The position numbers and the translations under genes are program-made. From Acidobacteriota bacterium (GTDB lineage Bacteria; Actinomycetota; Acidimicrobiia; Spongiisociales; UBA5794), in NCBI GenBank assembly GCA_022562055.1, contig JADFQA010000009.1:17255-81254 (forward strand): a DNA stretch of 64,000 nt. The letters run 5' to 3'. Positions 9,597 through 59,004 of this stretch are shown in pieces. Position 1 is the first letter of the stretch. Each line of letters opens with the position of its first letter. Under the pieces are notes generated by a model, which was not told where the DNA came from, did no database searches, and worked only from the letters and a program-made list of their open reading frames with translations.

Positions 9597-9597
9597 T

Positions 9598-10683: not shown

Positions 10684-10695
10684 AGAACCGGCCGG

Positions 10696-12744: not shown

Positions 12745-12924
12745 GTGCGACTCCTAGCCTGTGTCGCCGCTATGACGCACGGAACCGTCACGCAGGTTCC
12801 CAAGATCTCGTCCGTCGGCGTGCCCTCGTACGGCGTACCGCGGTGGAATGGCCGTCAGACAGGGGAGGTAGGAGGCGGGGAGCTATGGTGACGCGCTACA
12901 TTGGCTGGCCGACGTGGAGCAACG

Positions 12925-36711: not shown

Positions 36712-37212
36712 CTACAGGTCGGACTCTTTTTCGTACTTGTCTAGTGCAACGATGAACATGACGAACAGGATCAGCGATGCAACGGTGAGTCCGATGGCGG
36801 GGATACGAACCTCAATGGCGTTGAGACCCTGGACGCTTGAGGGTCGAATGCCTCGCGGTGCGTAAACGACGAAAAGCGTAGACCCGATGGTCAACCAGCC
36901 AAACAATGCTGCGCCAGACACGAGAAGGGCCAGGCGTTTCCCAAGATTGGTGTAGATCAGCGCAACGCCGCTGCCGATGAAGGCGAGCAGTGCCGATCCG
37001 GCGATCAACAATCCGCGGGCGGCGACAGAGAATCTGGTGAGCTCCCCGGTTTCGTCGATCTGTTTGAAAATGTTGGTGTATGCGTCTCCGAGAACGCCCC
37101 GTGCCGCCGGGATGAAGGCAGTGAACGCGACGACAATCGCAAAGACTCCGAGTTTTTCCAGACCTGATAGTCCGGACTCGTCACGATGGATGCGATGGAG
37201 TAGCGTTTTCAC
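36712..37212 (-). CDS. Membrane protein, last gene of the cytochrome bc operon, with a Flp-prepilin-like N-terminus
   Basis: GTG at 37212 overlaps the stop of the cytochrome c gene. RDESG|LSGLE followed by a hydrophobic helix and three further TM segments. Confidence 0.75.
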   Translation of the reverse strand: MKTLLHRIHRDESGLSGLEKLGVFAIVVAFTAFIPAARGVLGDAYTNIFKQIDETGELTRFSVAARGLLIAGSALLAFIGSGVALIYTNLGKRLALLVSGAALFGWLTIGSTLFVVYAPRGIRPSSVQGLNAIEVRIPAIGLTVASLILFVMFIVALDKYEKESDL

Positions 37213-38807
37213 ATCGAGTCCTCGTAGATGGCGATGAGTTCGATGTCTCGTTGGCTGAGCATCTTTCCGAAGGCTGGCATACGCCCGGTGCCAATTCCGT
37301 TGATCCCGTAGGACTGGCCGAATGTGGTGCCTTTGATGATGAGTTTCAGATGATCTTCGAACCGAACAAACTGCGAATCGGCTCTGCCATCGAGCAACGA
37401 CGGACCCCACGCTCCCGACCCCGCGGGTTGTTCGTATGCAACACCTGCGGAGTATCCACCGGTGTGGCAACGGGCGCAGTATGCGTTGTACAGGCCGACA
37501 GCCCGGGTTGCCTCGTCCAATGAAAGCCCGGTGTTCGCGCTGACCTCGCTGAAGTCCGTGAACCACTTTCGATCCTTGGCAGACTGGACGAGGAAGCCCA
37601 TGGACGTGTTGGCAGTCAGCAGGAACGCTTCATTGCGTTCGGTCATGACCTGAAGGTTGAGGTGGCGTGCGCCGACCAAGGTGAGAAACTCGTCTACCTC
37701 GTCAAGGTCGCTCTCGAGCATCCCCGAGGCGTCAGCCATCGAGAATGGGTTGTCGGTTTCGAGGGCGAGCAAGAGGGCTTCGGTCTCGACAAACGAGACG
37801 ACAAACTCTCCATCGACCTTCTTGACGAGTCGTGTTTGCATCTGCTCGAACGCCAATTCGGACATGTCGTTCAGCGTGGTCTCGGCTGCATCGGTAATGC
37901 CGTCGCGATCCGTGTCGACTCCAGACGTCCCACATACTCGGTCGACGAGAGCTGCGGATTTACTCGTGCACGTTCCGTCACCACCGAGCAGGGCGCTGAG
38001 CTGCTCCGGGAAGGTTTCGATCGGCTTAAACCGCGACGGAGCGTCGGCGATGTCGTCGATAACCGCTTGCTGGATGAGGATCAATTCGGCGACCTTTTCG
38101 TCACCCGTCTCGAGGCGCTTGATAGCGGAGTCAACTGCAGGCTCGATCTTGCGCAACACGTCGCCCTGGGTAACACCAAAGTCCTCAATGTAGGCCATGA
38201 CTTGAAGAACCTCTTGAAACGTCATGGCGCCACCGCCGGGTATGCCGTTCGCAGGCATCGGTGTTCCCTGGCGCCCGTGGTTGATGATCCCCGAGATTTC
38301 TTCCTCGTCGAAAAGGAAAAAGAGGTCGTTTAGCGAGGGGGCGCTCCACGAGGTGCTGAGTCCCGATCGGACCTCGACGAAGCTTGCCCCGCCGCCGACA
38401 CCATCCGCTCCGTGACAATCGATGCAGGAGAACTGGTTGAACCATCTCTCTCCCTCATCGATGTCTTTTTCGTGGATTGCTTCCGCAGCGCCGATCTGGC
38501 GGTCGGCTTCGTTGAGGTAGTAGATGGGTACGACCAGAGCTAACACGGCCGCGGCGACCATTGCCGAGCGCAACACAGTGTTGAGCTGGACGTTCTCGAG
38601 ATCGCCGTCAGACAGATATGGCTGGAGGTTCTTTGCGGGCTCTTCGCCGCCTGACTGGGGCCGGGCGGCAATCCACAGCCACGCAATCCACATCACGAAC
38701 ACCGCGGTGGCGACGATCAGAACTATCGAACCAATGCCGACGTTTGGTGGTCCCGTGCCGGTTGGACGCGCTTCGACGAAGAAATACAACGTTTGTAAGT
38801 CAATCAA
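37209..38807 (-). CDS. Membrane-anchored di-heme c-type cytochrome (QcrC-like) with a large inter-heme insertion
   Basis: CIDCH...GTPMP and CARCH...GRMP (His/Met ligation), two N-terminal TM helices. Confidence 0.9.
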   Translation of the reverse strand: MIDLQTLYFFVEARPTGTGPPNVGIGSIVLIVATAVFVMWIAWLWIAARPQSGGEEPAKNLQPYLSDGDLENVQLNTVLRSAMVAAAVLALVVPIYYLNEADRQIGAAEAIHEKDIDEGERWFNQFSCIDCHGADGVGGGASFVEVRSGLSTSWSAPSLNDLFFLFDEEEISGIINHGRQGTPMPANGIPGGGAMTFQEVLQVMAYIEDFGVTQGDVLRKIEPAVDSAIKRLETGDEKVAELILIQQAVIDDIADAPSRFKPIETFPEQLSALLGGDGTCTSKSAALVDRVCGTSGVDTDRDGITDAAETTLNDMSELAFEQMQTRLVKKVDGEFVVSFVETEALLLALETDNPFSMADASGMLESDLDEVDEFLTLVGARHLNLQVMTERNEAFLLTANTSMGFLVQSAKDRKWFTDFSEVSANTGLSLDEATRAVGLYNAYCARCHTGGYSAGVAYEQPAGSGAWGPSLLDGRADSQFVRFEDHLKLIIKGTTFGQSYGINGIGTGRMPAFGKMLSQRDIELIAIYEDSM

Positions 38808-39670
38808 TTGCAGGCCGGTCCTTGCGGGTAGGCGACGCTCTTGACTTTGGCACGCGAAGTCTCGAACACTGTGCCAGTATGGATGATGAGGTTGTTTTCC
38901 TCGTCGACCGTGACCATGAACCGGTCCATGTTGCGAGGCGCCGGACCTTCAATGTATTCGCCGTGCAAGTTGTACTTCGACCCGTGACATGGGCACTCGA
39001 ATCCCTGCGACGGCAGACACTCAGGTACTCGGCACCCTAGGTGAGGACACCGGTGCCAGATCGCCATGATGCCCGGTTCGGCACCGGCACCAACGATCAC
39101 GCTGTCCGCGATGTCGGCGAGAATCGACGCGGATACATCTCCACGGAATGGCACAATCCACGCTTGCGCGGCAGGGATAGGCTTCGGCTTGATCGTGCCA
39201 TCGGCCTGAATGACCTCCGTCCGGAGATCGTCGATGTTGCCGGCTGAGATCGGTGAGCCAAATCCGCCTTTGACTTTTGGCCAAAGAAACGCAAGGTACG
39301 CAAGGCCCTGTGTAGCGAGAAATGTGCCGAAGAAACCGAGGATGGCGCGGTTGAAAAACATCCGCCGGGTCGCACCGTAGTCCTCTTCGGATACCACCTC
39401 GCGCTCCGTAAGCGGATCGGCGATCGGCCCTGCATCCTCAACAGCTTCGGGGACGAGGACCTCGATCGAATCAGACTCAGCGCTAGGCGCGGAGAGCTTT
39501 CGCGCCTCGGCCTTACGAGCCCTGCGGTCCGCTTTTGCAGCGCGCCTGTCGAACGATCCTGTTATCGGTCCTGCGTCGGGGCCGCGTCCGACAGCGATGC
39601 TCGCAACAGCAGCGACAACGAGGACAGTTACGAGTCCAATACCGATAATGAAGGCGGTTTGAGCGTCCAT
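38804..39670 (-). CDS. Rieske 2Fe-2S subunit of a menaquinol:cytochrome c reductase (QcrA/PetC-like)
   Basis: CPHLGC and CPCHGSKY; TRRMFFNR Tat-like anchor. Confidence 0.95.
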   Translation of the reverse strand: MDAQTAFIIGIGLVTVLVVAAVASIAVGRGPDAGPITGSFDRRAAKADRRARKAEARKLSAPSAESDSIEVLVPEAVEDAGPIADPLTEREVVSEEDYGATRRMFFNRAILGFFGTFLATQGLAYLAFLWPKVKGGFGSPISAGNIDDLRTEVIQADGTIKPKPIPAAQAWIVPFRGDVSASILADIADSVIVGAGAEPGIMAIWHRCPHLGCRVPECLPSQGFECPCHGSKYNLHGEYIEGPAPRNMDRFMVTVDEENNLIIHTGTVFETSRAKVKSVAYPQGPACN

Positions 39671-40506
39671 CAGAAATCGAAGAATATCCCGTCTACCCAG
39701 GGGAATGTGAAGTTAAACCCTGGGCCTCGGAAAAACGAGCCGTACGTCGTGAGCACCGCGGCTCCCATGAAGAAGAATGAAAAGATCATGATTGCTAGCT
39801 TGCGGTCAGACGGCCGAACTGATGGATTGCGGTCAATGTAGGGAATGAATGCCAGCGCGGCCAAACCGTATCCAGGCAGGATAATGCCGGCAACCATTGG
39901 ATCGAAGTAAGACAGCAATTCCTGCAAGCCGAGGAAGTACCACGGCGCCTTGGACGGGTTCGGTTGCTGGTTGAAGTTCGCAAACTCGAGCAGCGGCGCA
40001 TCGACGTAGATCGAGAAAACGAACAGTCCTGCGGTGACGACCAGCAGTGCTACAAACTCGATGGCGACCAGGTGCGGCCAAGTGTTCACTTTGTCCGTTG
40101 GCTCCCGCTTTGTCTGCTGGATTGCGCCAGCCCGGACGACTGTCAGAAGCCGTTGTGTGCGGACACCTTCTGGAATGGTCGGCATGGGTGCAGGAGTGCC
40201 GGCAGCGACCGGCGCCGACGCGGTCTGCGCTGCTTGGGGGGCGCCGCTCGTCGTTGCCGCCACTGGGACGCCGGAGATTTTCGCTCTTGCCGTCATTGAG
40301 CGTTGGAGGAGATCCTCAGGGACACCGAGTTCCGCTGATTCTGTGGAGATATCGCGTGCCGCGCCCACGGCTTCCGCCGTACTAGCGGAGGACGATGGGG
40401 GCGCCTCGCCTTTCATTTCAGCGAGAATCTCATCGACCGGACGGCCTGTTGCTTTGGCTTTTGCCTCGGCCGAGCGACGAAGAAGGTGTTCTGGAAGTCC
40501 TGCCAT
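39670..40506 (-). CDS. Cytochrome b6 subunit IV / PetD-like, with a repeated N-terminal extension
   Basis: ATG at 40506. WPHL..IEF, NPSKAPWYFLGLQELL and PYIDRNP..RP..R; three TM helices. Confidence 0.9.
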   Translation of the reverse strand: MAGLPEHLLRRSAEAKAKATGRPVDEILAEMKGEAPPSSSASTAEAVGAARDISTESAELGVPEDLLQRSMTARAKISGVPVAATTSGAPQAAQTASAPVAAGTPAPMPTIPEGVRTQRLLTVVRAGAIQQTKREPTDKVNTWPHLVAIEFVALLVVTAGLFVFSIYVDAPLLEFANFNQQPNPSKAPWYFLGLQELLSYFDPMVAGIILPGYGLAALAFIPYIDRNPSVRPSDRKLAIMIFSFFFMGAAVLTTYGSFFRGPGFNFTFPWVDGIFFDF

Positions 40507-40514
40507 CGTATTCC

Positions 40515-41288
40515 CTAGAGCGGCCCTGAGATGCCGCCGTCCTTGCGGACTCGCCAGAAGTGCACGGACATGAAGATGACGATGATAAATGGTAAGAACA
40601 GGACATGCAGTACATACCACCGCAGCAGTGTGTCTGGTGTGATTTGTGTGCCACCGATCAGCGCAAAGCTCACTTGCTCGCCGATGACGGGAGCATAGCT
40701 GCCCATGTTTGAACCGACGGTCACCGCCCACACTGCAAGCTGATCCCACGGCAGCAAGTAGCCCGTGAAGGAGAGCAGCAGTGTAAGAAGCAACAGCACG
40801 ATACCGACAACCCAGTTGAACTCGCGTGGTGGTTTGTAGGCGCCGTGATAAAACACACGGGCCATGTGGAGGAACACGGTCAGCACCATTGCATGCGCGC
40901 CCCACCGGTGCATATTCCTCACAACCTGACCAAACGTAACGTCGGTCGCCAACGCCTGGATGTCGAGATACGCCTGCGGCGACGTTGGTCGGTAATAGAA
41001 CATCAAGAAGATGCCCGTAATGGTGAGCAGGATAAAGAGGAAGAAACTCAGCCCGCCAAGACACAACGTATACGACAATCGGACGCCGTGGCGCTTCACC
41101 TTCACCGGATGCAGGTGATACAAAACGTTGTTCATGATCACGTATGACCGGTTGCGAGGGGTGTCGGCGTAACCATCGCGGAACGGCGAGCCGGGACGAA
41201 AAATACTCGACCACGCTGCAGAAGACCTGACGTGTTGTCCGGTCTCGGCAAGTTTCGACATCAACCCGTTTTTGCTTTTGTCGCTCAC
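40515..41288 (-). CDS. Cytochrome b6-type N-terminal cytochrome b (PetB-like)
   Basis: CLGG (heme ci site), [26 protein letters not shown], and LHV...HFW with 14 residues between the His ligands. Confidence 0.95.
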
Positions 41289-41366
41289 CTACGCTCCTCG
41301 TCTACATTCTTGGTGCGGTGCCGTGGGCTGCCGCCGAGTGCCTTGCGCACTCGCGCACTCGCGTAC

Positions 41367-41810
41367 TTACCAACGGATGCCATACATGTACCCGTTCTTG
41401 AAATCGCGCTGCCCAGTGTCGTGCTCCCACGGCGTTGCTTCAAATCCGTCGGTTTTGTCGGCTACGGAACCGCTGAATTTTCCGAGGCTGATAACCCCCG
41501 TGGGGCAGCGATCGATGCACAGAGCGCACCGTGTGCAGACATCTTCGTCGACGATAAAGAATCCGCCGTTTTCCTTGTTCTCGTCCGGATGATCCACGTT
41601 GACACCTTCTGAAATGGCGTCAAGCGAAAGGAAGTGGATGCACTTCCACGGGCAAATGTCAACGCATCCCTCGCAGATAATGCATTCCGACTCGTCGATG
41701 TGGAGAAACGTTTTCGGTTTGACGGCCGCCACCAGGTATGCGCCGTCGACCAACGCGAGCTGGTAGTCGTCTCGGATCGGTGGGAGGTCTTGCCACACGT
41801 CATTCGCCAC
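41367..41810 (-). CDS. 2x[4Fe-4S] ferredoxin
   Basis: CIICEGCVDICP and CTRCALCIDRCP. Confidence 0.95.
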   Translation of the reverse strand: MANDVWQDLPPIRDDYQLALVDGAYLVAAVKPKTFLHIDESECIICEGCVDICPWKCIHFLSLDAISEGVNVDHPDENKENGGFFIVDEDVCTRCALCIDRCPTGVISLGKFSGSVADKTDGFEATPWEHDTGQRDFKNGYMYGIRW

Positions 41811-41813
41811 GGG

Positions 41814-42422
41814 CTACCGCTCCTGCTTGACAGTTGGCCTGCCGAACGCCGAAATCGGCGTTACGGGGTCTGATTCGATGCGGTTCTTTTCGTAGGTTTG
41901 CCACTTCACCATGGCGACTGGGATGCCGATCAGAAGGTTTCCCGTCATGCCGGCTACGAGGATCTCTTTGAGGACCTCGTACGAGATCGAAATATCGTTG
42001 TTGAGTGCCAGCACGCGTGGAATCGTGAACAAGGTTCTTTGCGATGACCAATCGAGATCGGTTTGGGCAATGGTCAATAGTTGGTTCGGGATTACGCCAA
42101 AGAGCAGCATCACCATGGATGTGAATACGAATGCCCCGATGGCTGCTCGCGCCCAAGTCAACTGTCGGCGGTACAAGAATGCCAGTGTTATTCCCCCAAG
42201 CAGCATGAATATCCCGGTTAGGGAGATGGTTTGTGCCAGTGTGCGAATGGGCAAACCGCGCGGGATCGAGGGGTACAGCTCGCGACCGACGGAGTCCGTT
42301 GCAGGGAGGCCTACGAAATGCGCAAGCACCGCACCGCCGATAGCAGTGAAAACCCCAAGGACCGCGACAGCGATACCGATTCGGTAGAACGTGCGCAGTT
42401 GCTTTTCGTCCAGGGCCTTCAC
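41814..42422 (-). CDS. Hypothetical membrane protein, first gene of the bc operon
   Basis: Three to four hydrophobic helices, 3 nt upstream of the ferredoxin gene. Confidence 0.75.
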   Translation of the reverse strand: MKALDEKQLRTFYRIGIAVAVLGVFTAIGGAVLAHFVGLPATDSVGRELYPSIPRGLPIRTLAQTISLTGIFMLLGGITLAFLYRRQLTWARAAIGAFVFTSMVMLLFGVIPNQLLTIAQTDLDWSSQRTLFTIPRVLALNNDISISYEVLKEILVAGMTGNLLIGIPVAMVKWQTYEKNRIESDPVTPISAFGRPTVKQER

Positions 42423-42650
42423 CTCGTTGTCCGTCTCGTGCGAGACGCCTCATCCTGTCAGTACCGTCTAGGTCGGTACGCGCATTCTACGCATGTGAAG
42501 TCGTCTGTGAAATCCATGCCCTTTTGACCATCGTCTCGAAGGATATGACAATGCACTGGGTGCGAGGTCTACTCAGAGGTCACGCGACTCAGATGCCGCA
42601 CTCGCAAAGACTAGGCTGGCGTGGCGAAGACCTACCCAGGTTGAGTATGT

Positions 42651-42710
42651 GCTTTGGCCGAGCATTGAAAGCGATACGAGGCTTTGGCCGAGCATTGAAA
42701 GCGATACGAG
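42651..42710 (+). repeat. Perfect 30-bp tandem duplication
   Basis: GCTTTGGCCGAGCATTGAAAGCGATACGAG occurs twice with no spacer. Confidence 0.95.
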
Positions 42711-42722
42711 GAAACGAAAACG

Positions 42723-44687
42723 GTGACCGCCGATACCAGTCTTACCGATGACGCTTCTGCGTCCTCATCAGACGTACCCGACGCTTTCATAGATCACGCC
42801 AACGTGCGCGTGTTTGCAAAGCTTGCGGTGCTGTTTCTCGTCGTCTCCACAGTTCTCGGTTCCATCGCGGCTGTTTCTCTCGTGAATCCCACCGTTGCCG
42901 ATATCTCTAGGTTTCTCTCGTATGGCCGGTTGTACCCGGTGGCGACAAACTTGTTCATTAACGGTTGGTTGACTCTCGGGTTCCTCGCGGTCGTTATGTA
43001 TCTCGTGCCCAGACTGCTCAACAGATCTCTTGCAGCCGCTGGTTCCGCGGTAGTCGGCGCCGGACTGTATGCCGCTGGTGTCATCGCTGCGGCTGGGTTC
43101 GTCACGGTGCAAGGCGTTGACGGGAACGTCGGTTTTGAGGCGCCCTGGTATATCGACTTTGTCACCTTGATCGGCGTAATCCTGATTTCACGAGCCGTCG
43201 CGTTAACCGTCCGCAAGCGTCCGAAATCGGGCGACGGTGGCGCTGCACCTATTCCGCCGGTGGTGCTGTTTCTTACGGCAGGGGTCATTTGGTTGACCCT
43301 TGCGTTGGCAGTCGCACTGCCGTTTGGTGGTGGTCCGACGACTGGTCTTGGTGGGGTTCTCCAGAACATATTTGCCCGGGGCGCCATCGTGGGCCTGTGG
43401 TTAACGTCGGCGGGTTTTGGTGCCGTCTACTACATATCTCACCGCATCACCGGCGCCCCGAGCCGTGCCACTGACCGAAGCGTCTTGGCTGCCTTCTGGT
43501 CTGTCGCTGTCGTCATGCCGTTTTACGGGGCGACGCAATTGGCACACTCGGTCATGCCTGACTGGTTGGAGACGGTGGGGGCCATGTTTGCAATTGGTGC
43601 GCTATTGCCCGCGCTCATTCTAGCGAACGACCTCGCCAGGACAGTGCGATCGCGCATCGACAACGTGACCGATGCTGTCACGCTGAAGTGGCTTTCTTTC
43701 GGCACCGCTAGCTTCGTTGCTTTCATTGCACTCACGGTTCTCGGAACAATTCGTTCGGTTGCGGCAGTCGCGCAGTTGACGACGTGGACGTCGGGTATCG
43801 AGTTCCTCGCACTCGGCGGTGCCTTCACCGCTTGGTTGGTCGCCTTTTACCGGCACGCCGGTGTTGAGTTTTCGGGTAGACATGTCGACCGTGCAACTTC
43901 TGAGTGGCATCTCCGCCTTACCGTGCTCGGCGTGGTTGGTTTCGTTCTGGCTTCCATGTCCGCCGGCGTCGTTTCGGGATATGCCTGGATCGGCGCAGCG
44001 AATTCGCCCAACGTCGGAGTGACCGGCGTTGACTTTGCGCTGGCTTCGCAGCCGACGTTATTTGCGCTGGCCACCCGTGGCGCCTCCCTGGGCGTTTTCG
44101 CGTTAGGCGCTATCGTGTTCGCAGCGTCGCTGCTGGGTTCTGCGTCGCCGACCACTGACACGCCCGAGGTCGACTCCCTCGATGACGGTCGCTCCGTGCT
44201 CTCCGGCTCTCCGGTGGGATTCCCCAAGCTTGTCGGCGCCAGTGTCGGTCTGTTCATCGTGGCGATGTCGGTGGTGTGGCTCATTCCGTCGACCGAAGTG
44301 AACCCGACCGAAGGGACCATCCTTGGCGACACCACCAGAATGGAATCAGACGATGTGTTTGCGGCGGGTAAGGCCATCTATCTGCAAGAAGGATGTGTCT
44401 ACTGTCACACGCAGCAGGTCCGTCCAATTGTTACCGACGTCGATCTTGGCGCGGTGAGCGCGTACGGCGATTACGTGAACGAAGATGTTGTGCCCCTCGG
44501 TGTCGCCCGCCTCGGTCCCGATTTGATGCACGCCGGCACTGGCGAGGACACCGGGTCCGTTGTTTTCCTGCGTAGTTTTCTTGAAGATCCTCGGGCGGAG
44601 CGTTCTTGGTCCACAATGCCGAGCTATGCGCACCTCTCAGACGCTGAGATCGAAGCGCTTGCGATTTATCTGACCGGGCTTAAGTGA
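42723..44687 (+). CDS. Degenerate cbb3-type subunit I (CcoN-like, no heme/CuB His) fused to a CcoO-like cytochrome c
   Basis: CcoN-collinear segments SYGRLYPVATN, EAPWYID, YGATQLAHS.MPDWL and TTWTSGIEF. C-terminal GKAIYLQEGCVYCHTQQVRP, RLGPDL and STMPSY. Confidence 0.85.
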   Translation: MTADTSLTDDASASSSDVPDAFIDHANVRVFAKLAVLFLVVSTVLGSIAAVSLVNPTVADISRFLSYGRLYPVATNLFINGWLTLGFLAVVMYLVPRLLNRSLAAAGSAVVGAGLYAAGVIAAAGFVTVQGVDGNVGFEAPWYIDFVTLIGVILISRAVALTVRKRPKSGDGGAAPIPPVVLFLTAGVIWLTLALAVALPFGGGPTTGLGGVLQNIFARGAIVGLWLTSAGFGAVYYISHRITGAPSRATDRSVLAAFWSVAVVMPFYGATQLAHSVMPDWLETVGAMFAIGALLPALILANDLARTVRSRIDNVTDAVTLKWLSFGTASFVAFIALTVLGTIRSVAAVAQLTTWTSGIEFLALGGAFTAWLVAFYRHAGVEFSGRHVDRATSEWHLRLTVLGVVGFVLASMSAGVVSGYAWIGAANSPNVGVTGVDFALASQPTLFALATRGASLGVFALGAIVFAASLLGSASPTTDTPEVDSLDDGRSVLSGSPVGFPKLVGASVGLFIVAMSVVWLIPSTEVNPTEGTILGDTTRMESDDVFAAGKAIYLQEGCVYCHTQQVRPIVTDVDLGAVSAYGDYVNEDVVPLGVARLGPDLMHAGTGEDTGSVVFLRSFLEDPRAERSWSTMPSYAHLSDAEIEALAIYLTGLK

Positions 44688-44694
44688 GTTAAGA

Positions 44695-45540
44695 ATGGAC
44701 CAATCGCTCAACAAGATTTCGGACGAGTACGGCTACCCCGCTGACCTGGTTTCAAGAGCCGCCGCCGCGCGAGCCCAGGTGGAGGGAATCAGCCGCGAAG
44801 CCGTCGCCGCCCGCTGGGCGGGGGAAGAAGTGCCCGAAGGGGGAGCGGCACCTGCGGCCGCACCCGCAGCCGTCGCAACCACACAGGACGATGCCGCAAC
44901 TCCGGCCGGTCTTGATGTCGAAGTGCTCGAAGCCGTTGGGCACGATGAACCTGACCTGCCCGACTCGCCGTCTGTAGTAGATGAGCCAAGTCCGGTAGGC
45001 GGGTTCGTGAGATGGCTCGCCATTGTTGCGTTCATCATTCCTGTCATTGCTCTCACGTACGCCTTTGTCGCGCCCGATGGTCCGGCCTGCGGAGCAGCCG
45101 GTCAACTCGACGTCGATCCTGCGACTGGGAACGCGGTCGGGTGCGACGGCAAGGCCTACGGTGCCGGTGCCGTCAATTTCTTTGCGCTCGGCCAGGACGT
45201 GTACACCGCACAGTGCGTTGCGTGTCACGCTGCCGACGGCAGCGGCGGGGTTGGACCTGCATTCTTCGGTGGGTCAATCGTCGAGACGTTCCCGGCGAAT
45301 ATTTGTGCGGACCATCTTGAGTGGATCACGCTCGGGTCCTCTGGGTGGCAGAACGAGCGTGGTAATACGTACGGTGCCTCCGCCAAACCAGTGCTCGGAT
45401 TTTCCGGTGTGCCGATGCCAGGCTTTAGTAAGCTGACAGCCGACGAGCTTTCCGCGGTAGCTATATATCAACGTGTCGCATTTGGTGGCGAGGAAATCGC
45501 TATCGCAGAAGCTTCCTGCCTCGTCTCCGCAGCCAGTTAG
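44695..45540 (+). CDS. Membrane-anchored monoheme cytochrome c with a cytoplasmic N-terminal extension
   Basis: One TM helix, CVACH and GVPMPGF; four further Cys outside the heme motif. Confidence 0.9.
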   Translation: MDQSLNKISDEYGYPADLVSRAAAARAQVEGISREAVAARWAGEEVPEGGAAPAAAPAAVATTQDDAATPAGLDVEVLEAVGHDEPDLPDSPSVVDEPSPVGGFVRWLAIVAFIIPVIALTYAFVAPDGPACGAAGQLDVDPATGNAVGCDGKAYGAGAVNFFALGQDVYTAQCVACHAADGSGGVGPAFFGGSIVETFPANICADHLEWITLGSSGWQNERGNTYGASAKPVLGFSGVPMPGFSKLTADELSAVAIYQRVAFGGEEIAIAEASCLVSAAS

Positions 45541-45597: not shown

Positions 45598-46833
45598 ATG
45601 CCTTCTCTAGATGTTCTCGTAGTCGGTGGTGGACCCGGTGGCTGTGCGGCCGGATACTGGTTAGCCCGCCAGGGTGTTTCCGTAAGCGTCATCGAGAAGA
45701 AGACGTATCCGCGAGCAAAGACGTGCGGGGACGGTCTCACCCCGCGGGCGATCAAGCAGCTTATCGACATGGGGTTCGACTTCGACATCCCTGAGATTCA
45801 TAAGATCAAAGGACTCCGTGCATACGCCGGCGACCTGGTTCTTGAGATGCCGTGGCCTGAACGAACGACGTACCCGAACTGGGGTGCGTCGATACGCCGA
45901 GCCGACTTGGACGGTGCGGTTGCCGAGCTTGCTCGTAGTCAGGGCGCCGAGGTCCGAGAAGGCACGGAGGCAGTTGCAGTTATCGAGGACTGGAGACTGA
46001 TCGCCGTCGACCTCAAAACAGCCGACGGTTCTGTCGAACGAGTTTTTCCCAAGATTGTCATCATTGCTGATGGATCGTTGAGTCGTTTCGGCCGGGCGCT
46101 TGCGGTCCAGCGTCGCCGAGACTACCCGTACGCCCTCGCGGTCCGCACGTATTACCGATCGCCGTATTCGACGAATGAGTTCATCGAAAGCCAACTCGAT
46201 ATCCGCGACAAGGATGGTCGCTCTCTGCCCGGTTACGGGTGGGTGTTCCCGCTCGGTGACGGCACGATCAACGTCGGTGTCGGTGTGCTCTCGACGTTCA
46301 AGGGATGGAAAGAGGTCAACACTTCGCACATGCTCGAGTCGTATGTTGCTCGCCTGCCCGAGCATTGGCAGGTTTCGGAGAATGATGTCCTCCAGCCGCC
46401 GACTGGCGGCAAGCTGCCGATGGCGATGTCGGTCGGTCCGAAGGTTGGTGCCAACTGGCTCGTCATTGGCGATGCTGCCGGCGCGGTCAATCCGTTCAAC
46501 GGCGAAGGCATCGACTACGCATACGAGACAGGTCGCATGGCTGCTGATGTGATTGTCGAGGCGCTAGCTGCGAACGATCTTGCGTTGTTGCACCGATACT
46601 CGCAAGTACTCGACGACGAGTACGCCGCCTACTACAAGGTCGCGCGGATATTTGTCAACGTCATCGGTAATCCATCGGTGATGAAGGCGCTGACCCAGGT
46701 CGGGTTGCGGTCGCGCCCGCTCATGGAGTGGACGTTGAAGGTCATGGCGAACCTGCTCGAGCCCGAGGAGTACGGCATGTCAGAGCGCGTGTACAAAGCG
46801 ATCGAAAAGGTCGTCCGTTTCGTCCCCAAGTAG
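45598..46833 (+). CDS. Geranylgeranyl reductase family protein (MenJ-like menaquinone reductase)
   Basis: VVGGGPGG, KTCGDGLTPRA, GYGWVFP, GDAAG.VNPFNGEGI.YA.ETG; located near nuoA. Confidence 0.88.
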   Translation: MPSLDVLVVGGGPGGCAAGYWLARQGVSVSVIEKKTYPRAKTCGDGLTPRAIKQLIDMGFDFDIPEIHKIKGLRAYAGDLVLEMPWPERTTYPNWGASIRRADLDGAVAELARSQGAEVREGTEAVAVIEDWRLIAVDLKTADGSVERVFPKIVIIADGSLSRFGRALAVQRRRDYPYALAVRTYYRSPYSTNEFIESQLDIRDKDGRSLPGYGWVFPLGDGTINVGVGVLSTFKGWKEVNTSHMLESYVARLPEHWQVSENDVLQPPTGGKLPMAMSVGPKVGANWLVIGDAAGAVNPFNGEGIDYAYETGRMAADVIVEALAANDLALLHRYSQVLDDEYAAYYKVARIFVNVIGNPSVMKALTQVGLRSRPLMEWTLKVMANLLEPEEYGMSERVYKAIEKVVRFVPK

Positions 46834-46859: not shown

Positions 46860-47480
46860 TTACGCCCGTATACGGGCGTGGTTAGCGCCAGAATCCATTT
46901 GTCGCGCTGGGGCGCCGATAAGCGCTCGGATACCCGGGCCGAGGCCGTCGAACACGGTGATGTCGTTGCGAATCTCAGCGACGAGAAGCATGCCTTCGGT
47001 CAGGGCGAGCACGGCGTCTGCTGCTGCTGCTGACGAGTCTTGCTCGGGGATTTCGCCGGCCGCAATAGCGTCGTCGATTGCTCCCTTGAACAGCTCGCTC
47101 ATGCGAGCGAGCATTTCCGCAGCAGCGTCCTGAAGACCTGGGTGGAGGCCGGTGGCCTCGCTCCCCACGCTGCCGAATGGGCATCCGTACGCCCGGTCCC
47201 ATCCCTCTTGCATCGTCTTTACCGACTCGGCATATCGGTCGAATCGTTCGAGCGGCGGGAGATCGCTAGAGAAAGCCGACCCATAGATCCGTTTTGAAGA
47301 CTCTTCCCAGTCATGGTCCAGAACTGCAAGTCCGAGCTCTTCCTTCGTCTTGAACCAGTAGTAGAAGCTGCCCTTGGGTATCCCGACTGCCTCACAAATG
47401 TCGCGGATGCTCACGGCCTCGTACGAACGGGCGCGGATTAGACGTGCGGCCGCTGAAACGATCTCTGGTTTTGTGGTCAT
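46860..47480 (-). CDS. TetR-family regulator (NemR/LmrA-like C-terminus)
   Basis: SIRDICEAVGIPKGSFYYWFKTKEEL and GCPFG. Confidence 0.92.
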   Translation of the reverse strand: MTTKPEIVSAAARLIRARSYEAVSIRDICEAVGIPKGSFYYWFKTKEELGLAVLDHDWEESSKRIYGSAFSSDLPPLERFDRYAESVKTMQEGWDRAYGCPFGSVGSEATGLHPGLQDAAAEMLARMSELFKGAIDDAIAAGEIPEQDSSAAAADAVLALTEGMLLVAEIRNDITVFDGLGPGIRALIGAPARQMDSGANHARIRA

Positions 47481-47490
47481 ACCCAGATAC

Positions 47491-47552
47491 TAGTCGGTCG
47501 GTCGACTTGCGTCATAGCAAAGTTCCCTGTATTGTCGTCGACCGGTCGACTA
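47491..47552. promoter_or_regulatory. Two related TetR-type operators
   Basis: TAGTCGGTCGGTCGACTT (47491-47508) and TCGTCGACCGGTCGACTA (47535-47552, perfect 14-bp core) lie in the divergent gap. Confidence 0.65.
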
Positions 47553-47566
47553 CCAGGAGATACCGC

Positions 47567-48067
47567 GTGCAGATTAAGTATGAGACAACGATTGAGGCTC
47601 CCCGGGACCACGTGTGGAAGATCCTCAACGACTTTGGAAATATTGAGAATTTCCACCCCTTCGTGCTCGAGTCGCATTCGCTCTCAGACGCCGCCGGTGG
47701 GCTCGGCGCGACGAGGAGGTGCGACTTCGGCAAAGGTGTCGCGGTGAGCGAGCGAATCGTTGGTTGGTCGGATGGAGAGTCGATGGACATCGACATTTAC
47801 AAACGCGAAGGGATGCCGTCCGTCGTAAAGTCGATGACGGCCCGGTTTGAGTTGTCCGACGCTGGCGACGCAACCCGCGTCGTCGGCTCGCTCTCGATCG
47901 AAATCGCGCCAAAGGTCGTTGCGGTGCTCATGGGTCCCATCATGAACCGACAAATGACTAAAGCGTTGCGAGGGCTTTTGGCAGGTATGAAACGGCACGC
48001 TGAGACGCAAGACCTCGTCAATGTGGAGTCCGACGTTGACATTGATGCTGTTGTCGCCGTCGCTTAG
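47567..48067 (+). CDS. SRPBCC / polyketide cyclase-family protein
   Basis: GGAG RBS with GTG at 47567; TIEAPRDHVWKILNDF...GATRRCDF...ERI..W. Confidence 0.85.
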   Translation: MQIKYETTIEAPRDHVWKILNDFGNIENFHPFVLESHSLSDAAGGLGATRRCDFGKGVAVSERIVGWSDGESMDIDIYKREGMPSVVKSMTARFELSDAGDATRVVGSLSIEIAPKVVAVLMGPIMNRQMTKALRGLLAGMKRHAETQDLVNVESDVDIDAVVAVA

Positions 48068-49170: not shown

Positions 49171-49590
49171 GTGACTCTTGTTGCGTATTTACCAATCGGC
49201 CTCATGATGCTGCTGGGAATCGGCTTTGCCACGACCGCGATGTGGGTGTCGTGGAAGATTGCACCCAACAATCCCTCCCCCGAAAAGCTCGCTCCGTACG
49301 AGTGCGGCATCGTTCCCCTCCAAGAACCCGCCGAGCGTTTCCCCATTAAGTTCTACCTCGTTGCCATGTTGTTCGTGATCTTTGACGTCGAACTTGTGTT
49401 TCTGTTCGCATGGGCCGTGCGCTTCGAATCATTCGGGTGGACAGGCATCGCCGCGATGGCAGTGTTCGTCGCGCTGCTCGCAGAGACGCTCGTCTATGTG
49501 TGGAAGCGTGGCGCTCTCGACTGGAACGTGGCTCACCGGGCCCGATACCGCAGAGTCGTTGCTGAGTACGCCGACGAAGAGGCGGCGTAG
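49171..49590 (+). CDS. nuoA: NADH-quinone oxidoreductase subunit A
   Basis: [19 protein letters not shown] and KRGALDW. Confidence 0.97.
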
Positions 49591-50060
49591 TGGCCGGTGA
49601 GACGACCCCACCGGGATTCTTGCTCACCACTCTCGACAAGGGTGTCAACTGGGCGCGAACCCGCTCGATGTGGCCGGCGTCTTTTGGTCTCGCGTGTTGC
49701 GCCATCGAGATGATGGCGACCGGCGCATCTCACAACGACATTGCGCGTTTCGGCATGGAAGTGTTCCGCGCTTCTCCGCGTCAGGCTGACCTGATGATCG
49801 TTGCCGGGCGCGTTTCGCAGAAAATGGCCCCGGTACTGCGCCAGGTGTATGACCAAATGGCCGATCCGAAATGGGTGATCTCGATGGGTGCGTGCGCATC
49901 CACCGGGGGAATGTTCAACAACTACGCGCTGGTGCAAGGCGTCGACCAGATCGTTCCGGTCGACATGTACGTCCCGGGTTGCCCGCCAGGTCCGCAGTCG
50001 TTGCTGCACGGTATTTTGAGCCTGCAAGAAGAAATCATGGCTGGCACCATCCGCCGGTAA
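49590..50060 (+). CDS. nuoB: NADH-quinone oxidoreductase subunit B
   Basis: [21 protein letters not shown] and PGCPP. Confidence 0.97.
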
Positions 50061-50079
50061 TCGAGGAGTAGCAGAACCA

Positions 50080-50652
50080 GTGTCTGAGGAGAGCAAAACA
50101 AAGCCTAAGAGCGCGACGGCTCAGAGTGTGACGCACGGAGGTGACGCTGGCGCGGCGCGCGTCATGCCCGCAGACGCCGTCTTGGCCGCCCTCGCCGAGG
50201 AGTTTGCGAGCGCCGAATTCGAGGTGTTTGAAGCTGCCGGCGCATCGTGGGACATCGTTACGGTGTCGGTAGACGACTATCACGGGTTTGTCGCTGCGGC
50301 CCATGCCAGCGGGTACACCATGTTTGTTGACCTGTGCGCCGTTGATTATCTGAGAAGAGACCCCCGTTTCGAAGTCGTGGTGCACATTGAGTCGCCCAGT
50401 CCCTACACGAGGTTGCGTATCAAGGTCGGGGTTACGATGCCCGACGTTCTCGTTTCGTCGATCTCCGACATCTACGCGGGTGCCAACTTTTTTGAACGCG
50501 AGGCGTTCGACCTCATGGGTGTCAACTTCTCGGGTCACCCCGACCTGACGCGTCTGCTGCTTCCTGACGACTGGGAAGGTCATCCGCTGCGCAAGGACGC
50601 AGCGACAGGCACGGTGCCCGTCCAGTTCAAGGCGTCGTACAAAGCCACATGA
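50080..50652 (+). CDS. nuoC: NADH-quinone oxidoreductase subunit C
   Basis: EREAFDLMG..F.GHPDL.R and GHPLRKD. Confidence 0.96.
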   Translation: MSEESKTKPKSATAQSVTHGGDAGAARVMPADAVLAALAEEFASAEFEVFEAAGASWDIVTVSVDDYHGFVAAAHASGYTMFVDLCAVDYLRRDPRFEVVVHIESPSPYTRLRIKVGVTMPDVLVSSISDIYAGANFFEREAFDLMGVNFSGHPDLTRLLLPDDWEGHPLRKDAATGTVPVQFKASYKAT

Positions 50653-52070
50653 GCGACACGCCAAACATCCTTGCCGACGAGGACGAAACCAACGGTGGCG
50701 ACCTGTCACCTATGGCCAGTGACGCGGATTCTCGTCGCGAAATTCACGACCTGTGGGTTGCCGGCACCGAAGAGCCCGATTGGCTGAAGTCGGCGACCGA
50801 CGAAGGTGCCCAGGAGATCCTCCCAGAGTCCCAAGACCCCGCCGCAGCCATTCAGCTCGGCATCACTGTGGACAACGACTACGTCGATAGCAGCGACGTT
50901 GTGCAGGAGCAGCGTCAGATTCTCAACATGGGACCGCAACACCCGTCGACACATGGAGTGTTGCGCCTTCACCTCGAGCTCGAGGGCGAGACCATTCGCC
51001 GCGTGAAACCGATCATCGGATACCTCCACACAGGGATGGAAAAAACCGCCGAAACCCTCTCGTACATGCAGGGTTCGACCAACGTCACACGCATGGATTA
51101 CCTCTCACCGTTTCACAACGAGCTAGCTTTTTCGCTCGCCGTTGAACAGCTCCTCGTCGTTGACATCCCTGCGCGTGCACAGGCCATCCGCGTTCTGATG
51201 ACCGAATTGAATCGCATTTCGAGCCATCTTCTCTGGGTCGCCACCCAGGGTATGGACATCGGCGCTGTGTCGCTGATGTTGTTCGGGTGGCAAGAGCGCG
51301 AATACTGTCTGGAGTTTTTCGAAAAAGTCACCGGTCTTCGTATGAACCACAACTTCATCCGTCCCGGTGGAGTCGCGGCCGACATGCACGACGGCTGGGA
51401 AGACGACGTCGAGGATCTTCTCGTCAAGATTCCGCTGGGCATCGAACGGTACGAGAACATGCTCAGTGAGAGTCCCATCTTCCTCGACCGCACCCAGGGC
51501 GTTGGTGTAATCACTCCCGAAGAATGCCGTCAGTACGGCGTAACCGGCCCTATCGCACGAGCCTCGGGGATCGACCATGACCTCCGCAAGGTGTTCCCGT
51601 ACAGCGGAATCGAGCAGTACGACTTCGATATCCCGATTGGGAAACACGGCGACGTGTACGACCGCTACGTTGTGCGCATGGAGGAGATGCGTCAGTCTCT
51701 ACGCATAGTCAGCCAGGTGCTCAACACCATGCCAGCCGGCGACTATCGGACCGAGGACCGCAAAGTGACGCCGCCGCCGCGCAAGCGCATCGATGAGTCG
51801 ATGGAGGCGCTCATCCACCACTTCAAACTGTTTACCGAGGGGTTCCGTGTTCCTGCCGGCGAGGCGTACCAAAGTGTGGAGTCCCCTCGCGGTCACCTGG
51901 GTGTCTACCTCGTCTCCCAGGGCGGTGCGCGTCCGTGGCGACTCCATGTGCGTGCGCCCTCGTTTGCGGCGGTCCAAGCCATGCCCGTGATGATGACCGA
52001 CACGTTGATCGCTGACCTTGTCGCAACCCTTGCCTCCACCGACCCGGTACTCGGAGATGTCGATCGATGA
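50649..52070 (+). CDS. nuoD: NADH-quinone oxidoreductase subunit D, with an acidic N-terminal extension
   Basis: NMGPQHPSTHGVL, GYLHTG.EK, RMDY and DPVLGDVDR. Confidence 0.97.
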   Translation: MSDTPNILADEDETNGGDLSPMASDADSRREIHDLWVAGTEEPDWLKSATDEGAQEILPESQDPAAAIQLGITVDNDYVDSSDVVQEQRQILNMGPQHPSTHGVLRLHLELEGETIRRVKPIIGYLHTGMEKTAETLSYMQGSTNVTRMDYLSPFHNELAFSLAVEQLLVVDIPARAQAIRVLMTELNRISSHLLWVATQGMDIGAVSLMLFGWQEREYCLEFFEKVTGLRMNHNFIRPGGVAADMHDGWEDDVEDLLVKIPLGIERYENMLSESPIFLDRTQGVGVITPEECRQYGVTGPIARASGIDHDLRKVFPYSGIEQYDFDIPIGKHGDVYDRYVVRMEEMRQSLRIVSQVLNTMPAGDYRTEDRKVTPPPRKRIDESMEALIHHFKLFTEGFRVPAGEAYQSVESPRGHLGVYLVSQGGARPWRLHVRAPSFAAVQAMPVMMTDTLIADLVATLASTDPVLGDVDR

Positions 52071-52707
52071 CTGACCTAATGGCTGACCGTGTGATCAATC
52101 AATGGAGTCCCGAGCGTCAGGAGCGTGCTCGGGCGGTGTTGGCCGCCTACCCAGAGCGCCGCTCAGCCGTGATGCCACTGCTCTATCTGGCGTCCCGCGA
52201 ACACGGGCACTGTACGACCCAAGCAATGGTCGAGGTCGGCAAGATCACCGGACTCACGTCTGTTCAGGTCGAATCGGTCGCTTCCTTTTACTCGATGTAC
52301 AGGCGCGAAAATGTTGGGAAGTACGTCATCTCGGTCTGTACCTCTATCTCTTGTTTTCTCCTCGGTGCCGATGACGTTCTGGCAGCGATTGAAGATGAGA
52401 CCGATACGCCAGACGGCGAAACCTCGTCTGACAAGCTTTTCTCGGTCGAACATGTTGAGTGCTCAGGGGCGTGCGGCGGTGCTCCCGCCGTGTCAGTGAA
52501 CTGGGAACTCATCGAAGGAGTACTTCCTGAAAGGGGGCGCGCATTATGCCGGTGGCTCAGGGACGCACGGCCCGTCACGGTGCTTGCGGACGAAATGCAG
52601 ACACTCTTCGGCGGTCAGCAGTCCTTTGACTGGGGGATTGTGGAACTTCAGGGCGCGACGAGTCACATACCGGCCTTTGAACCCTACGAGTCGGCCGGGG
52701 AATCAGC

Positions 52708-52711
<4 letters not shown>
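52067..52711 (+). CDS. nuoE: NADH-quinone oxidoreductase subunit E
   Basis: SFYSMY, VCTSISC and ECSGACGGAP. Confidence 0.95.
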
Positions 52712-54022
<1,311 letters not shown>

Positions 54023-54030
<8 letters not shown>

Positions 54031-56470: not shown

Positions 56471-57514
56471 GTGGACATCTTCGTCGAGGCCGCCGTCAAG
56501 GTCCTTGTCGCGTTTGCGCTGTTACTCAACGTTGTCGTGGTCATCGTGTGGATGGAACGCAAAGTTGTCGCCGCCATGCAAACCCGTATCGGACCGGATA
56601 GGGCAGGTCCGTGGGGCATGTTCCAGACCATTGCGGACGGTATCAAGCTGATGATGAAGGAGTCCTTGACGCCACGCAAGGTGCAGTTCGGCCTCTATAT
56701 TGCAGCACCAGTTATGGCCTTGGTGCCCGCGCTGCTGCTCTTCCTTGTCATTCCAATCGGAGCACCGTTCCAGTTCGGGGACAGGACCATCACTCTTGCC
56801 GTTACCGACCTCAACATCGGCATCCTCTATGTGCTTGCGATTTCTTCGATCGGCGTGTACGCGGTGGTCCTGGCGGGCTGGTCGTCGGGTTCGAAATACC
56901 CTCTGTTTGGTTCGGTGCGTGCCTCTGCGCAGATGATCTCCTACGAGGCGGCAATGGGACTCTCGCTTATCCCGGTCATTATCTTTGCAAGGTCAGCGTC
57001 GCTCACGGGCATTGTCACCGCACAGGGCGGTGACACTTTCGGGTTCCTCGGCACATGGAACATCGTGCTACTCCCCTCGTTCATCATCTTCTTCATATCC
57101 GGGGTCGCGGAGACGAACCGCCCTCCCTTCGATATGGTCGAGGCAGAATCCGAGATCGTCGGCGGTTACCACACTGAATACTCTGGATTCCGGTTTGCGC
57201 TCTTCTTCCTTGCAGAGTTCATGAACATGTTCACCATGTCAGCACTGACGATCACCCTGTTCTTCGGCGGGTGGATGGGACCGACCTTTGGGCTTCCCGA
57301 GCGAATCCATTGGGTCATCTACATTGCATGGTTCTTTGCAAAGACGTTCACCTTTGTATTCATCTTCATCTGGCTGCGCGCGGCACTGCCTCGAATGAGA
57401 TACGACCAGCTCATGGGCTTCGGGTGGAAGCGGCTGATCCCGGCCGCGCTGATGTGGTTGGCCACGTTCACCGTCGCCATTGGATACCGGACGTTTGGGC
57501 TCCCATGGTCTTGA
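56471..57514 (+). CDS. nuoH: NADH-quinone oxidoreductase subunit H
   Basis: [33 protein letters not shown] and RMRYDQLM. Confidence 0.97.
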
Positions 57515-57524
57515 AAGGTGCAAC

Positions 57525-59001: not shown

Positions 59002-59004
59002 GGA

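Follow-up and report, generated by a model that had tools for sequence, protein, structure and literature searches.

Here we describe a locus from a member of the Acidimicrobiia in which a respiratory complex of the cytochrome b6c type faces, on the opposite strand, a cbb3-like oxidase module whose catalytic subunit has lost every metal ligand. It lies within a 64,000-nucleotide stretch of contig JADFQA010000009.1 (assembly GCA_022562055.1), hereafter the window, and comprises a minus-strand b6c operon and a divergent plus-strand pair of genes, coding for a CcoN-CcoO fusion protein and for a monohaem cytochrome c (cytC1) that occupies the position of CcoP. The CcoN-like domain of the fusion is under purifying selection and retains its fold, together with the carrier sites of the module. 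We lean towards the view that this module (CcoN', CcoO' and P', together N'O'P') would be a fossil cbb3 oxidase that has been retained to scaffold electron carriers, placed between the b6c complex and a caa3 oxidase encoded elsewhere in the genome. As far as we have searched, the combination of a b6c complex III with a degenerate cbb3 module is unpublished, and full-text literature searches turned up neither a ligand-less CcoN nor the locus itself.

A cbb3-like module without its metal ligands

The fusion gene (42723-44687, plus strand, GTG start) encodes 654 amino acids (aa) and matches the Pfam families COX1 (78 bits, cut-off 35) and FixO (60 bits, cut-off 30). Its ligand-less CcoN-like part (42723-44138, plus strand, aa 1-472) contains 12 transmembrane (TM) helices. 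After it (44139-44687, plus strand) come a linker on the cytoplasmic side (aa 473-499), the 13th TM helix (aa 500-525) and a haem-c domain of the CcoO type, which has a CVYCH haem site at aa 558-562 (nucleotides 44394-44408) and Met632 as axial ligand. The TM anchor, the CxxCH motif and the axial Met of the CcoO-like domain are invariant in 41 sequences. The protein falls short of the cut-offs of the CcoN model TIGR00780 (65.9 bits vs 583), of the CcoN-CcoO fusion model PRK14485 (129 vs 1080) and, in its CcoO part, of the equivalog TIGR00781 (56 vs 201).

In alignments of the CcoN-like domain with solved cbb3 structures and with genuine CcoN-CcoO fusions, the six His that bind haem b, haem b3 and CuB in cbb3 oxidases (His60, His207, His257, His258, His345 and His347 in P. 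stutzeri numbering) are replaced by A, G, T, Q, I and F, respectively, and that of the cross-link Tyr251 in helix 7 is occupied by Met (by Trp, Ala, Ser or Gln in relatives). The few His that the protein still has are all at non-ligand positions, and it is in this sense that the term "His-less", used in a first-pass annotation made from the letters alone, is borne out. The same residues, ligand His and cross-link Tyr, are gone in all 52 of the 52 Acidimicrobiia CcoN-like proteins, fused or split, which represent at least seven coded families and include proteins from genomes of about 1 Mb. Conversely, all seven are kept in 33 of 33 CcoN proteins from other phyla, drawn from Acidobacteriota, Cyanobacteriota, Melainabacteria, a Brocadiaceae metagenome-assembled genome (MAG), two MAGs labelled Heliomicrobium, and Flavobacterium. 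In the tree, one branch splits the ligand-less from the intact proteins (SH-aLRT 97), a topology compatible with one event of ligand loss. An alternative haem ligation was considered and rejected, since no conserved His, Met, Cys or Lys exists in the membrane core of the domain. With every ligand lost throughout the clade, the alignments make the reduction of O2 (or NO) by this subunit very unlikely, as the first-pass annotation had concluded for O2. Because all the metal ligands are absent, the subunit would not be the high-affinity oxidase of the database labels.

What remains is a maintained protein. The AlphaFold2 (AF2) model of the fusion (pLDDT 80, pTM 0.87) comprises the 12 TM helices, the cytoplasmic linker, the 13th helix and the CcoO domain, and its best match in Foldseek is the cbb3 CcoN of 3mk7 (TM-score 0.83, root-mean-square deviation 3.3 Å over about 475 residues). 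The ratio of non-synonymous to synonymous substitution rates (dN/dS) of the CcoN-like domain was 0.07-0.16 in six independent pairs, with the Rieske protein and the di-haem cytochrome c of the same loci in an equal range, and a pseudogene was rejected on these values. Streamlined genomes, of some 1 Mb and 33-35% guanine-cytosine (GC) content, have kept the gene as well. Conservation is unevenly distributed, the periplasmic half of the CcoN-like domain being more conserved than the cytoplasmic half (0.61 vs 0.55; 44 vs 21 strongly conserved columns; p = 3e-4) and the CcoO domain being the best-conserved part of the fusion protein. At the old active site, two charged residues are conserved, Arg344 (98%) and Glu/Asp360 (98%); the acidic residue is flanked by the two positions that the His ligands of haem b3 and haem b once occupied. 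As read from these conserved columns, Arg344 and Glu360 may form a buried salt bridge filling the site. Glu139, Asp145 and Glu283 are likewise invariant or nearly so in the CcoN' family.

The second gene of the module, cytC1 (44695-45540, plus strand, 281 aa; Pfam Cytochrom_C and Cytochrome_CBB3), encodes the monohaem P' protein. According to its AF2 model it consists of an N-terminal cytoplasmic three-helix module, then a disordered linker and a TM helix (aa 102-125), and lastly a cytochrome c domain of class I, with a CVACH haem site at aa 174 and Met241. A sequence motif shared with the b6c complex, dealt with below, spans aa 14-43 (nucleotides 44734-44823). In Foldseek the model retrieved generic class I cytochrome c matches only, the best with an E value of 0.016.

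The b6c operon and its linkage to the module

Gene content was checked by a listing of open reading frames (ORFs) together with Pfam and NCBIfam scans of the window proteins, and the genes that had been named for the two operons are all present. Those of the minus strand are tightly coupled, mostly by gaps or overlaps of a few bases, the exception being the 78 nucleotides that separate the ferredoxin gene from that of cytochrome b6. The latter protein (40515-41288, minus strand, 257 aa) is the four-helix N-terminal half of a cytochrome b (Pfam Cytochrome_B, 162 bits). Its haem ligands are His127/His141 and His228/His243, with the b6f-like spacing of 14 and 15, and Cys76 within YTLCLGG (nucleotides 41061-41063), kept in all aligned Acidimicrobiia loci, is predicted from the motif to attach haem ci. 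Among NCBIfam models, b6 exceeds the cut-off of the ExtP equivalog (304.9 bits vs 290) and stays below that of the cytochrome b6 subfamily (213 vs 325). About 16 residues ahead of the haem-ci Cys, the segment HLHPVKV (aa 57-63, window positions 41100-41120) is invariant in Acidimicrobiia, and most acidobacterial cytochromes b have HIHP(V/I)K as its counterpart. For anammox complexes, AlphaFold3 modelling has assigned to an N-terminal His of cytochrome b an additional haem b located between the monomers (PMC12954380).

Subunit IV (39670-40500, minus strand, 276 aa; Pfam Cytochrom_B_C) has three TM helices and the Qo motif APWY at aa 185-188 (NPSKAPWYFLG; nucleotides 39937-39948). Its N-terminus begins with two cytoplasmic helical motifs of 30 aa (around nucleotides 40408-40497 and 40237-40323), followed by an Ala/Pro-rich linker, and its score against the NCBIfam ExtQ model is below the cut-off (59 bits vs 150). 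The Rieske [2Fe-2S] protein (38804-39670, minus strand, 288 aa; Pfam Rieske) carries its ligands in CPHLGC...CPCHGS (aa 208-229) and an internal twin-arginine anchor, RRMFF, with an extra N-terminal helix ahead of it. The membrane-anchored di-haem cytochrome c (37209-38807, minus strand, 532 aa; Pfam Cytochrome_CBB3 and Cytochrom_C) has its haem motifs at aa 128 (CIDCH) and aa 444 (CARCH), in two haem domains that an insert of some 220 aa keeps apart. To these the operon adds a ferredoxin-type subunit with two [4Fe-4S] clusters (41367-41810, minus strand, 147 aa; Pfam Fer4 families), whose two CxxCxxCxxxCP motifs, CIICEGCVDICP (aa 43-54) and CTRCALCIDRCP (aa 92-103), are separated by a long insert and whose sequence contains neither a signal peptide nor a TM helix. 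Across the class its identity is 65-90%, a level that only b6 surpasses, and it is 33% identical (E 3e-15) to the C-terminal iron-sulphur (FeS) domain of an acidobacterial GltD-like flavoprotein.

The relationship between the two operons was followed in a sample of 151 Acidimicrobiia genomes. A b6 at least 71% identical to that of the window occurs in about 140 of them, and a homologue of CcoN'O' (E <= 1e-10) in 53, including 34 of the 40 genomes of the window's order. At every one of the roughly 55 loci holding both, the dead module adjoins the b6c operon in divergent orientation, in line with the co-conservation that the first-pass annotation had set as a check; the linkage does not hold in the opposite direction, b6c being found without the module in about two-thirds of the genomes. 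Eight module-free genomes keep the seven-gene b6c operon, and on its opposite side carry the reductase gene that also flanks the present locus, the monohaem cytochrome or nothing recognisable. It follows from this one-sided co-conservation that the CcoN-like protein is an accessory and no obligate partner of b6c. Judging from gene content, complex III of the class as a whole is the ferredoxin-bearing b6c, with the dead module as an accessory to it. The CcoN-like gene is the least conserved of the locus (31-40% identity where b6 has 80-88%). Some Acidimicrobiia encode a second b6-like cytochrome b, about 55% identical to that of the window (for example G018:C20:11285-11941, G146:C53 and G023:C1:1456785), as distant from it as the acidobacterial ones and with no adjoining CcoN gene.

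A further link between the two operons is a motif of 30 residues, with the consensus LPEHLLRRSAEARAKAEGRxVEEVLAEMKGE, which a motif hidden Markov model found genome-wide only in subunit IV (two copies) and in cytC1 (one copy). The three copies are all N-terminal and cytoplasmic, and they appear in AF2 as confident short helices; no Pfam family matched the motif at E values up to 10. From locus to locus the copy number varies, between 1 and 5 for subunit IV and between 1 and 3 for the cytochrome, and the motif is also found on CcoO' when this is a separate protein. At loci lacking the dead module, it is rare or absent.

The linkage takes another form in a sister lineage, that of family f15 (L096, positions 903-14319) and of three metagenome contigs (L105, L106 and L107), where the fusion partner of the ligand-less CcoN is, in place of CcoO, a cupredoxin whose type-1 copper site is intact (H..C..H..M). 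The genes run there as a co-directional string, divergent from the b6c operon: ResA-ResB-ResC, CcoN'-cupredoxin, CtaC, CtaD, CtaE, CtaF, CtaG, CcoO', P', the reductase and nuoA. The caa3 genes are thus nested inside the dead module. The CcoN' proteins of f15 and of the three contigs share 37-66% identity with one another.

Electron route and readings of the module

The genome assembly (2.93 Mb, 97% complete) holds two genes of the COX1 family, that of the dead subunit and that of a genuine A-type oxidase. The latter lies on contig C63, in an operon made up of ctaC with a fused cytochrome c domain (hence caa3), ctaD, ctaE, a ctaF-like gene and a CtaG-like gene. An inventory of intact oxidases outside the locus, advised by the first-pass annotation, thus yields this single caa3. 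The window b6 is the sole cytochrome b of the genome, in which no bd oxidase, FixG, FixH or RuBisCO was found. A hidden second bc-type complex III and a bd oxidase were rejected as candidates, neither being in the genome, as was an autotrophy requiring reverse electron flow, there being no RuBisCO. With one cytochrome b, one real oxidase, no bd oxidase and no RuBisCO, the b6c complex would be the housekeeping complex III feeding caa3. The simplest chain that we infer runs from NADH through complex I, complete in the window, to menaquinol, b6c (Rieske protein and di-haem c), caa3 and O2.

About six c-type cytochromes are recognisable in the genome, and no multihaem or other cytochrome-c-dependent terminal enzyme was recognised among them, NirK/NosZ-type copper enzymes not having been searched for. 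NrfD-type modules number three. One of them (C20:26991-30384) lines up an FeS protein with a twin-arginine translocation (Tat) signal, a membrane protein of the NrfD type and a monohaem cytochrome c anchored in the membrane. Another stretch (C24:12622-19595) encodes a molybdopterin oxidoreductase (867 aa, Tat signal) with an FeS protein, NrfD, a possible chaperone and a further FeS protein; on its gene content, this is a putative quinol-linked reductase or oxidase.

In the scaffold reading that we favour, the dead N'O'P' module would not reduce O2 and would serve as a membrane platform holding one or two periplasmic one-electron carriers beside b6c. These carriers would relay or dock electrons from the di-haem c of b6c toward the cytochrome c domain of caa3, and the helical motif of 30 residues common to both would probably fasten the module, on its cytoplasmic side, to subunit IV. 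At the n-side, electrons would most likely pass between haem ci and the ferredoxin subunit. As to its origin, the module would be the fossil of an ancestral Rieske/cytochrome b plus cbb3 assembly such as Acidobacteriota still encode, there with the cbb3 active; in the fossil, the oxidase core would have died while an A-type oxidase took over the chemistry. Such a reading is supported by the clade-wide loss of ligands, by the retention of the fold, of the carrier sites and of selection, by the genome inventory, by the linkage to b6c and, in the sister lineage, to caa3, and by the precedents of solved bc1-cbb3 supercomplexes and of the acidobacterial clusters.

Several points weigh against it. 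The caa3 oxidase of this genome is encoded on another contig, and the need for an extra relay is not obvious when caa3 has its own fused cytochrome c and b6c a di-haem c. Some two-thirds of the sampled genomes have the ferredoxin-bearing b6c operon and no dead module, so that the relay cannot be essential. The FeS protein, NrfD-type protein and monohaem cytochrome c on contig C20 could be a minimal quinol:cytochrome c module resembling alternative complex III (ACIII), that is, a second such route. In the f15-type string, cytochrome c maturation and copper-insertion genes are neighbours of the module, which fits a role in assembly equally well. The branches of the dead clade are long, and long-branch effects could contribute to the apparent single origin.

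A bolder version of the scaffold can be sketched, although we regard it as rather doubtful. Many Acidimicrobiia would respire through a hitherto undescribed three-part supercomplex, with the haem-ci b6c and caa3 at either side of a cofactor-free cbb3 fossil, the 12-helix body of which would act purely as a hub, would display interchangeable periplasmic carriers (the CcoO haem c or a cupredoxin, depending on the lineage) and would be zipped to subunit IV by the repeated cytoplasmic motif. The 2x[4Fe-4S] subunit would constitute a second electron gate, at haem ci on the n-side. This gate could be a ferredoxin-to-menaquinone input or a quinol-driven reduction of a low-potential acceptor.

Among the alternatives, N'O'P' might stand outside the working chain as a set of biogenesis or assembly factors, either for c-type cytochrome maturation or for the insertion of copper or haem into caa3 or b6c. 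The f15-type CcoN' follows directly after ResA-ResB-ResC, in a string that also holds Caa3_CtaG. We hold this to be unlikely, given that the carrier domains keep a full redox ligation that is typical of electron carriers (CxxCH and Met in CcoO' and cytC1, H..C..H..M in the cupredoxin), that window-type loci occur without adjacent maturation genes, and that purifying selection on the module is as strong as on structural subunits.

The first-pass annotation had suggested instead that b6c and the dead oxidase connect ferredoxin and menaquinone with an outer chain of cytochrome c, the electrons going to an acceptor other than O2 or flowing in reverse, uphill. Similar proposals exist: reverse operation has been suggested for uncharacterised complexes of the APWY clade (Kao and Hunte 2014, PMC4122944), and related anammox complexes have been proposed to bifurcate electrons to NAD(P)+ (PMC12954380). 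The FeS subunit in the operon, and the molybdopterin enzyme and NrfD-type modules elsewhere in the genome, would also be in keeping with it. Against this, the sole cytochrome b of the genome stands alongside a complete NADH-oxidising complex I and an intact caa3; there is neither RuBisCO nor bd oxidase, and no multihaem or other cytochrome-c-dependent reductase among the six or so c-type cytochromes; and in the sister lineage the module is intermeshed with the caa3 operon. The inventory therefore makes a forward flow from menaquinol to O2 via caa3 the simplest reading, and the suggestion of another acceptor or of reversal is not upheld; we consider it distinctly unlikely.

It might also be argued that the CcoN-like domain has gained a new activity, as an ion or proton channel, as a sensor or in the binding of a non-His cofactor, in which case the b6c neighbourhood would reflect shared regulation only. 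The charged residues conserved at the old active site, together with Glu139, Asp145 and Glu283, could be called upon in its favour. Yet the membrane core is devoid of conserved His, Met, Cys or Lys, it is the periplasmic face and the CcoO domain that are best conserved, and the shared motif and nested caa3 genes point to a physical partnership, which leaves this proposal decidedly improbable. That the gene is a decaying, functionless relic can hardly be sustained: its low conservation, the long branches of its clade and its loss in many families of the class are outweighed by intact frames in most loci, by a dN/dS that effectively refutes decay, by retention in the streamlined genomes and by an invariant haem-c site.

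Flanking genes, annotation and relation to known systems

The b6c operon begins and ends with genes for small membrane proteins. The first, memA (41814-42422, minus strand), encodes a polytopic protein of 202 aa, found at every related locus, whose conservation profile shows the motifs AHF, IPRxW, TWARA and a C-terminal YGRP; it matched no Pfam family at E values up to 10 and no NCBIfam family. The last, memB (36712-37212, minus strand, 166 aa), has a GTG start that overlaps the stop codon of the cytochrome c gene. Its C-terminal three-helix core is conserved (YTNLG...YAPRG...), and its N-terminal helix follows the pattern DE(R/S)G|(L/M)(S/T)xLE(K/W)(L/F)G (here DESG|LSGLE), which resembles a class III (Flp/TadE-like) signal, is kept in many loci and is absent, as a whole helix, in families f2 and f11. 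The description of memB as pilin-like finds no support at the family level, no Pfam family, Flp/TadE included, being matched at E values up to 10, although the pattern itself is conserved in many relatives.

Between memA and the fusion gene lies a divergent intergenic region (42423-42722). Two promoter-like pairs of hexamers stand there back to back and 13 bp apart, TTCACA-16-TAGAAT on the minus strand (42511-42484) and TTGACC-17-GACAAT on the plus strand (42524-42552), in a segment (42472-42567) that is 81-84% identical in the nearest relatives, L008 and L009; across the whole intergenic region, the count of such hexamers is not above chance. A perfect tandem repeat of 2 x 30 bp (GCTTTGGCCGAGCATTGAAAGCGATACGAG, 42651-42711), located 12 bp upstream of the GTG start of the fusion gene, was not found in the same two relatives.

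Downstream of cytC1 lies a gene for a flavoprotein of the geranylgeranyl-reductase family (45598-46833, plus strand, 411 aa; GG-red-SF TIGR02032, 240 bits vs 159), a gene of this family flanking the locus in most relatives. It had been presented as MenJ-like and as followed by nuoA-N. The order of the genes and the superfamily assignment stand; the score against the MenJ equivalog NF045655 is below the cut-off (295 bits vs 700), and a minus-strand TetR regulator and an SRPBCC/polyketide-cyclase-like gene (46860-48067) separate the reductase gene from nuoA. From its family membership, it may still be imagined to act like MenJ and saturate the side chain of menaquinone. In two related loci, L001 and L002, the slot of the TetR and SRPBCC genes is taken by very large ORFs, of 2317 and at least 1731 aa, the former being a cadherin/Big_9-repeat protein. 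The nuoA-N genes (49171-63947, plus strand), with NuoEFG, encode a complete NADH-oxidising complex I.

These results have consequences for annotation. In the protein collection (JGI names), the ligand-less genes are annotated as subunits I/II of a cbb3-type oxidase, and studies of Acidimicrobiales MAGs list a cbb3 oxidase as a respiratory capacity (PMC8357290). If the oxidase so listed belongs to the ligand-less family, the high-affinity, microaerobic respiration attributed to Acidimicrobiia would be wrong, including for the abundant genomes of about 1 Mb and 33-35% GC. In the same way, the name "selenite/tellurite reduction operon b-type cytochrome" that the ExtP model gives to b6 is misleading, the cut-off being passed without any Ext context. 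More generally, a cofactor-free subunit I of the haem-copper oxidases under class-wide purifying selection would stand as a clear example of a respiratory-chain pseudo-enzyme, and the alternative carrier fusions (haem c or cupredoxin), along with the nested caa3 genes, make the scaffold hypothesis directly testable.

When the locus is set against known systems, the first-pass annotation is seen to have rightly separated it from the classical actinobacterial QcrCAB-CtaCDEF supercomplex (M. smegmatis 6adq, C. glutamicum 7qhm). The two have in common the phylum, a di-haem cytochrome c, an A-type terminal oxidase and no need for a soluble cytochrome c. Unlike QcrCAB, however, the complex described here has a split cytochrome b of another clade, with an added ferredoxin and a dead cbb3 module, and it is below the cut-offs of the NCBIfam models for QcrB (NF050120, 112 bits vs 500), QcrA (25 vs 275) and QcrC (17 vs 200). 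With the b6c complexes of Bacillus and heliobacteria and the b6f of cyanobacteria and chloroplasts it shares the split cytochrome b, with His ligands spaced by 14 and 15, a haem-ci Cys set within (Y/L)CLGG and an organism of the menaquinol type. It departs from them in the Qo motif (APWY vs PDWY or PEWY), in the extra memA, memB and ferredoxin, and in having a long di-haem c in place of cytochrome f or of a subunit IV-c fusion.

By its split b6 and subunit IV, its APWY Qo motif and its CxGG haem-ci motif, the complex is assigned, on motifs, to the APWY clade, in which the split cytochrome b of Ilumatobacter (Acidimicrobidae) had already been placed and which was uncharacterised as of 2014 (Kao and Hunte 2014, PMC4122944). 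The Ext cluster of Geobacter combines ExtOPQ, of the selenite/tellurite reduction operon, with the multihaem cytochromes ExtHIJKLMN and a porin (PMC5877670). The present complex differs from ExtOPQ (NF040969, NF040970) in not reaching the ExtQ cut-off, in the absence of multihaem cytochromes and of a porin from both locus and genome, and in having no selenoprotein. Unlike other complexes of the clade, the published descriptions of which make no mention of a dead cbb3 module, it would act as the only complex III in a heterotroph that is apparently aerobic. This makes forward operation likely and speaks against a reverse-only function of the clade. Its relatives in anammox bacteria have been modelled with FeS flavoproteins at the n-side (PMC12954380). 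Clusters at the n-side would be a common trait; in contrast to the anammox R/b complexes with their GltD/Nfn-like flavoprotein, the Acidimicrobiia loci have only the 147-aa 2x[4Fe-4S] protein and no flavoprotein.

Acidobacteriota encode an assembly of the kind from which the locus would derive. In the string represented by a Holophagaceae locus (L064, 5957-18267; L049-L086 overall), genes for a small protein, a Rieske protein, an unsplit cytochrome b, a multihaem cytochrome c (605 aa) and active CcoN and CcoO are followed by those for a small protein, a GltD-like NAD(P)H flavoprotein with 2x[4Fe-4S], CcoG and an 856-aa ORF in the position of CcoI. This arrangement resembles the anammox R/b complexes, yet it is joined to a cbb3 oxidase. 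Its cytochrome b is 52-56% identical to the window b6, but is unsplit and without the haem-ci Cys; its FeS domain is homologous to the window ferredoxin, but forms part of the GltD-like NAD(P)H flavoprotein.

With cbb3 oxidases themselves (CcoN, CcoO and CcoP, and the natural CcoN-CcoO fusions; P. stutzeri 3mk7), the module shares the 12-TM fold of subunit I, at the TM-score given above, a TM-anchored CcoO-type haem-c domain with CxxCH and Met, a gene for a membrane-anchored cytochrome c in the position of CcoP, and the non-ligand motifs SYGRL, FWS and PDW. It differs in the absence of the six His and of the cross-link Tyr, in the single haem of P' as opposed to two, and in a genome without FixG and FixH. 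As in the bc1-cbb3 supercomplexes (R. capsulatus 6xkw, P. aeruginosa 8smr and the alphaproteobacterial 9g83), a Rieske/cytochrome b complex is paired with a cbb3-type module, a pairing known here from the genes. In those supercomplexes and in the acidobacterial clusters the cbb3 is intact, whereas in the present locus the oxidase is dead and the reduction of O2 would be left to a separate caa3.

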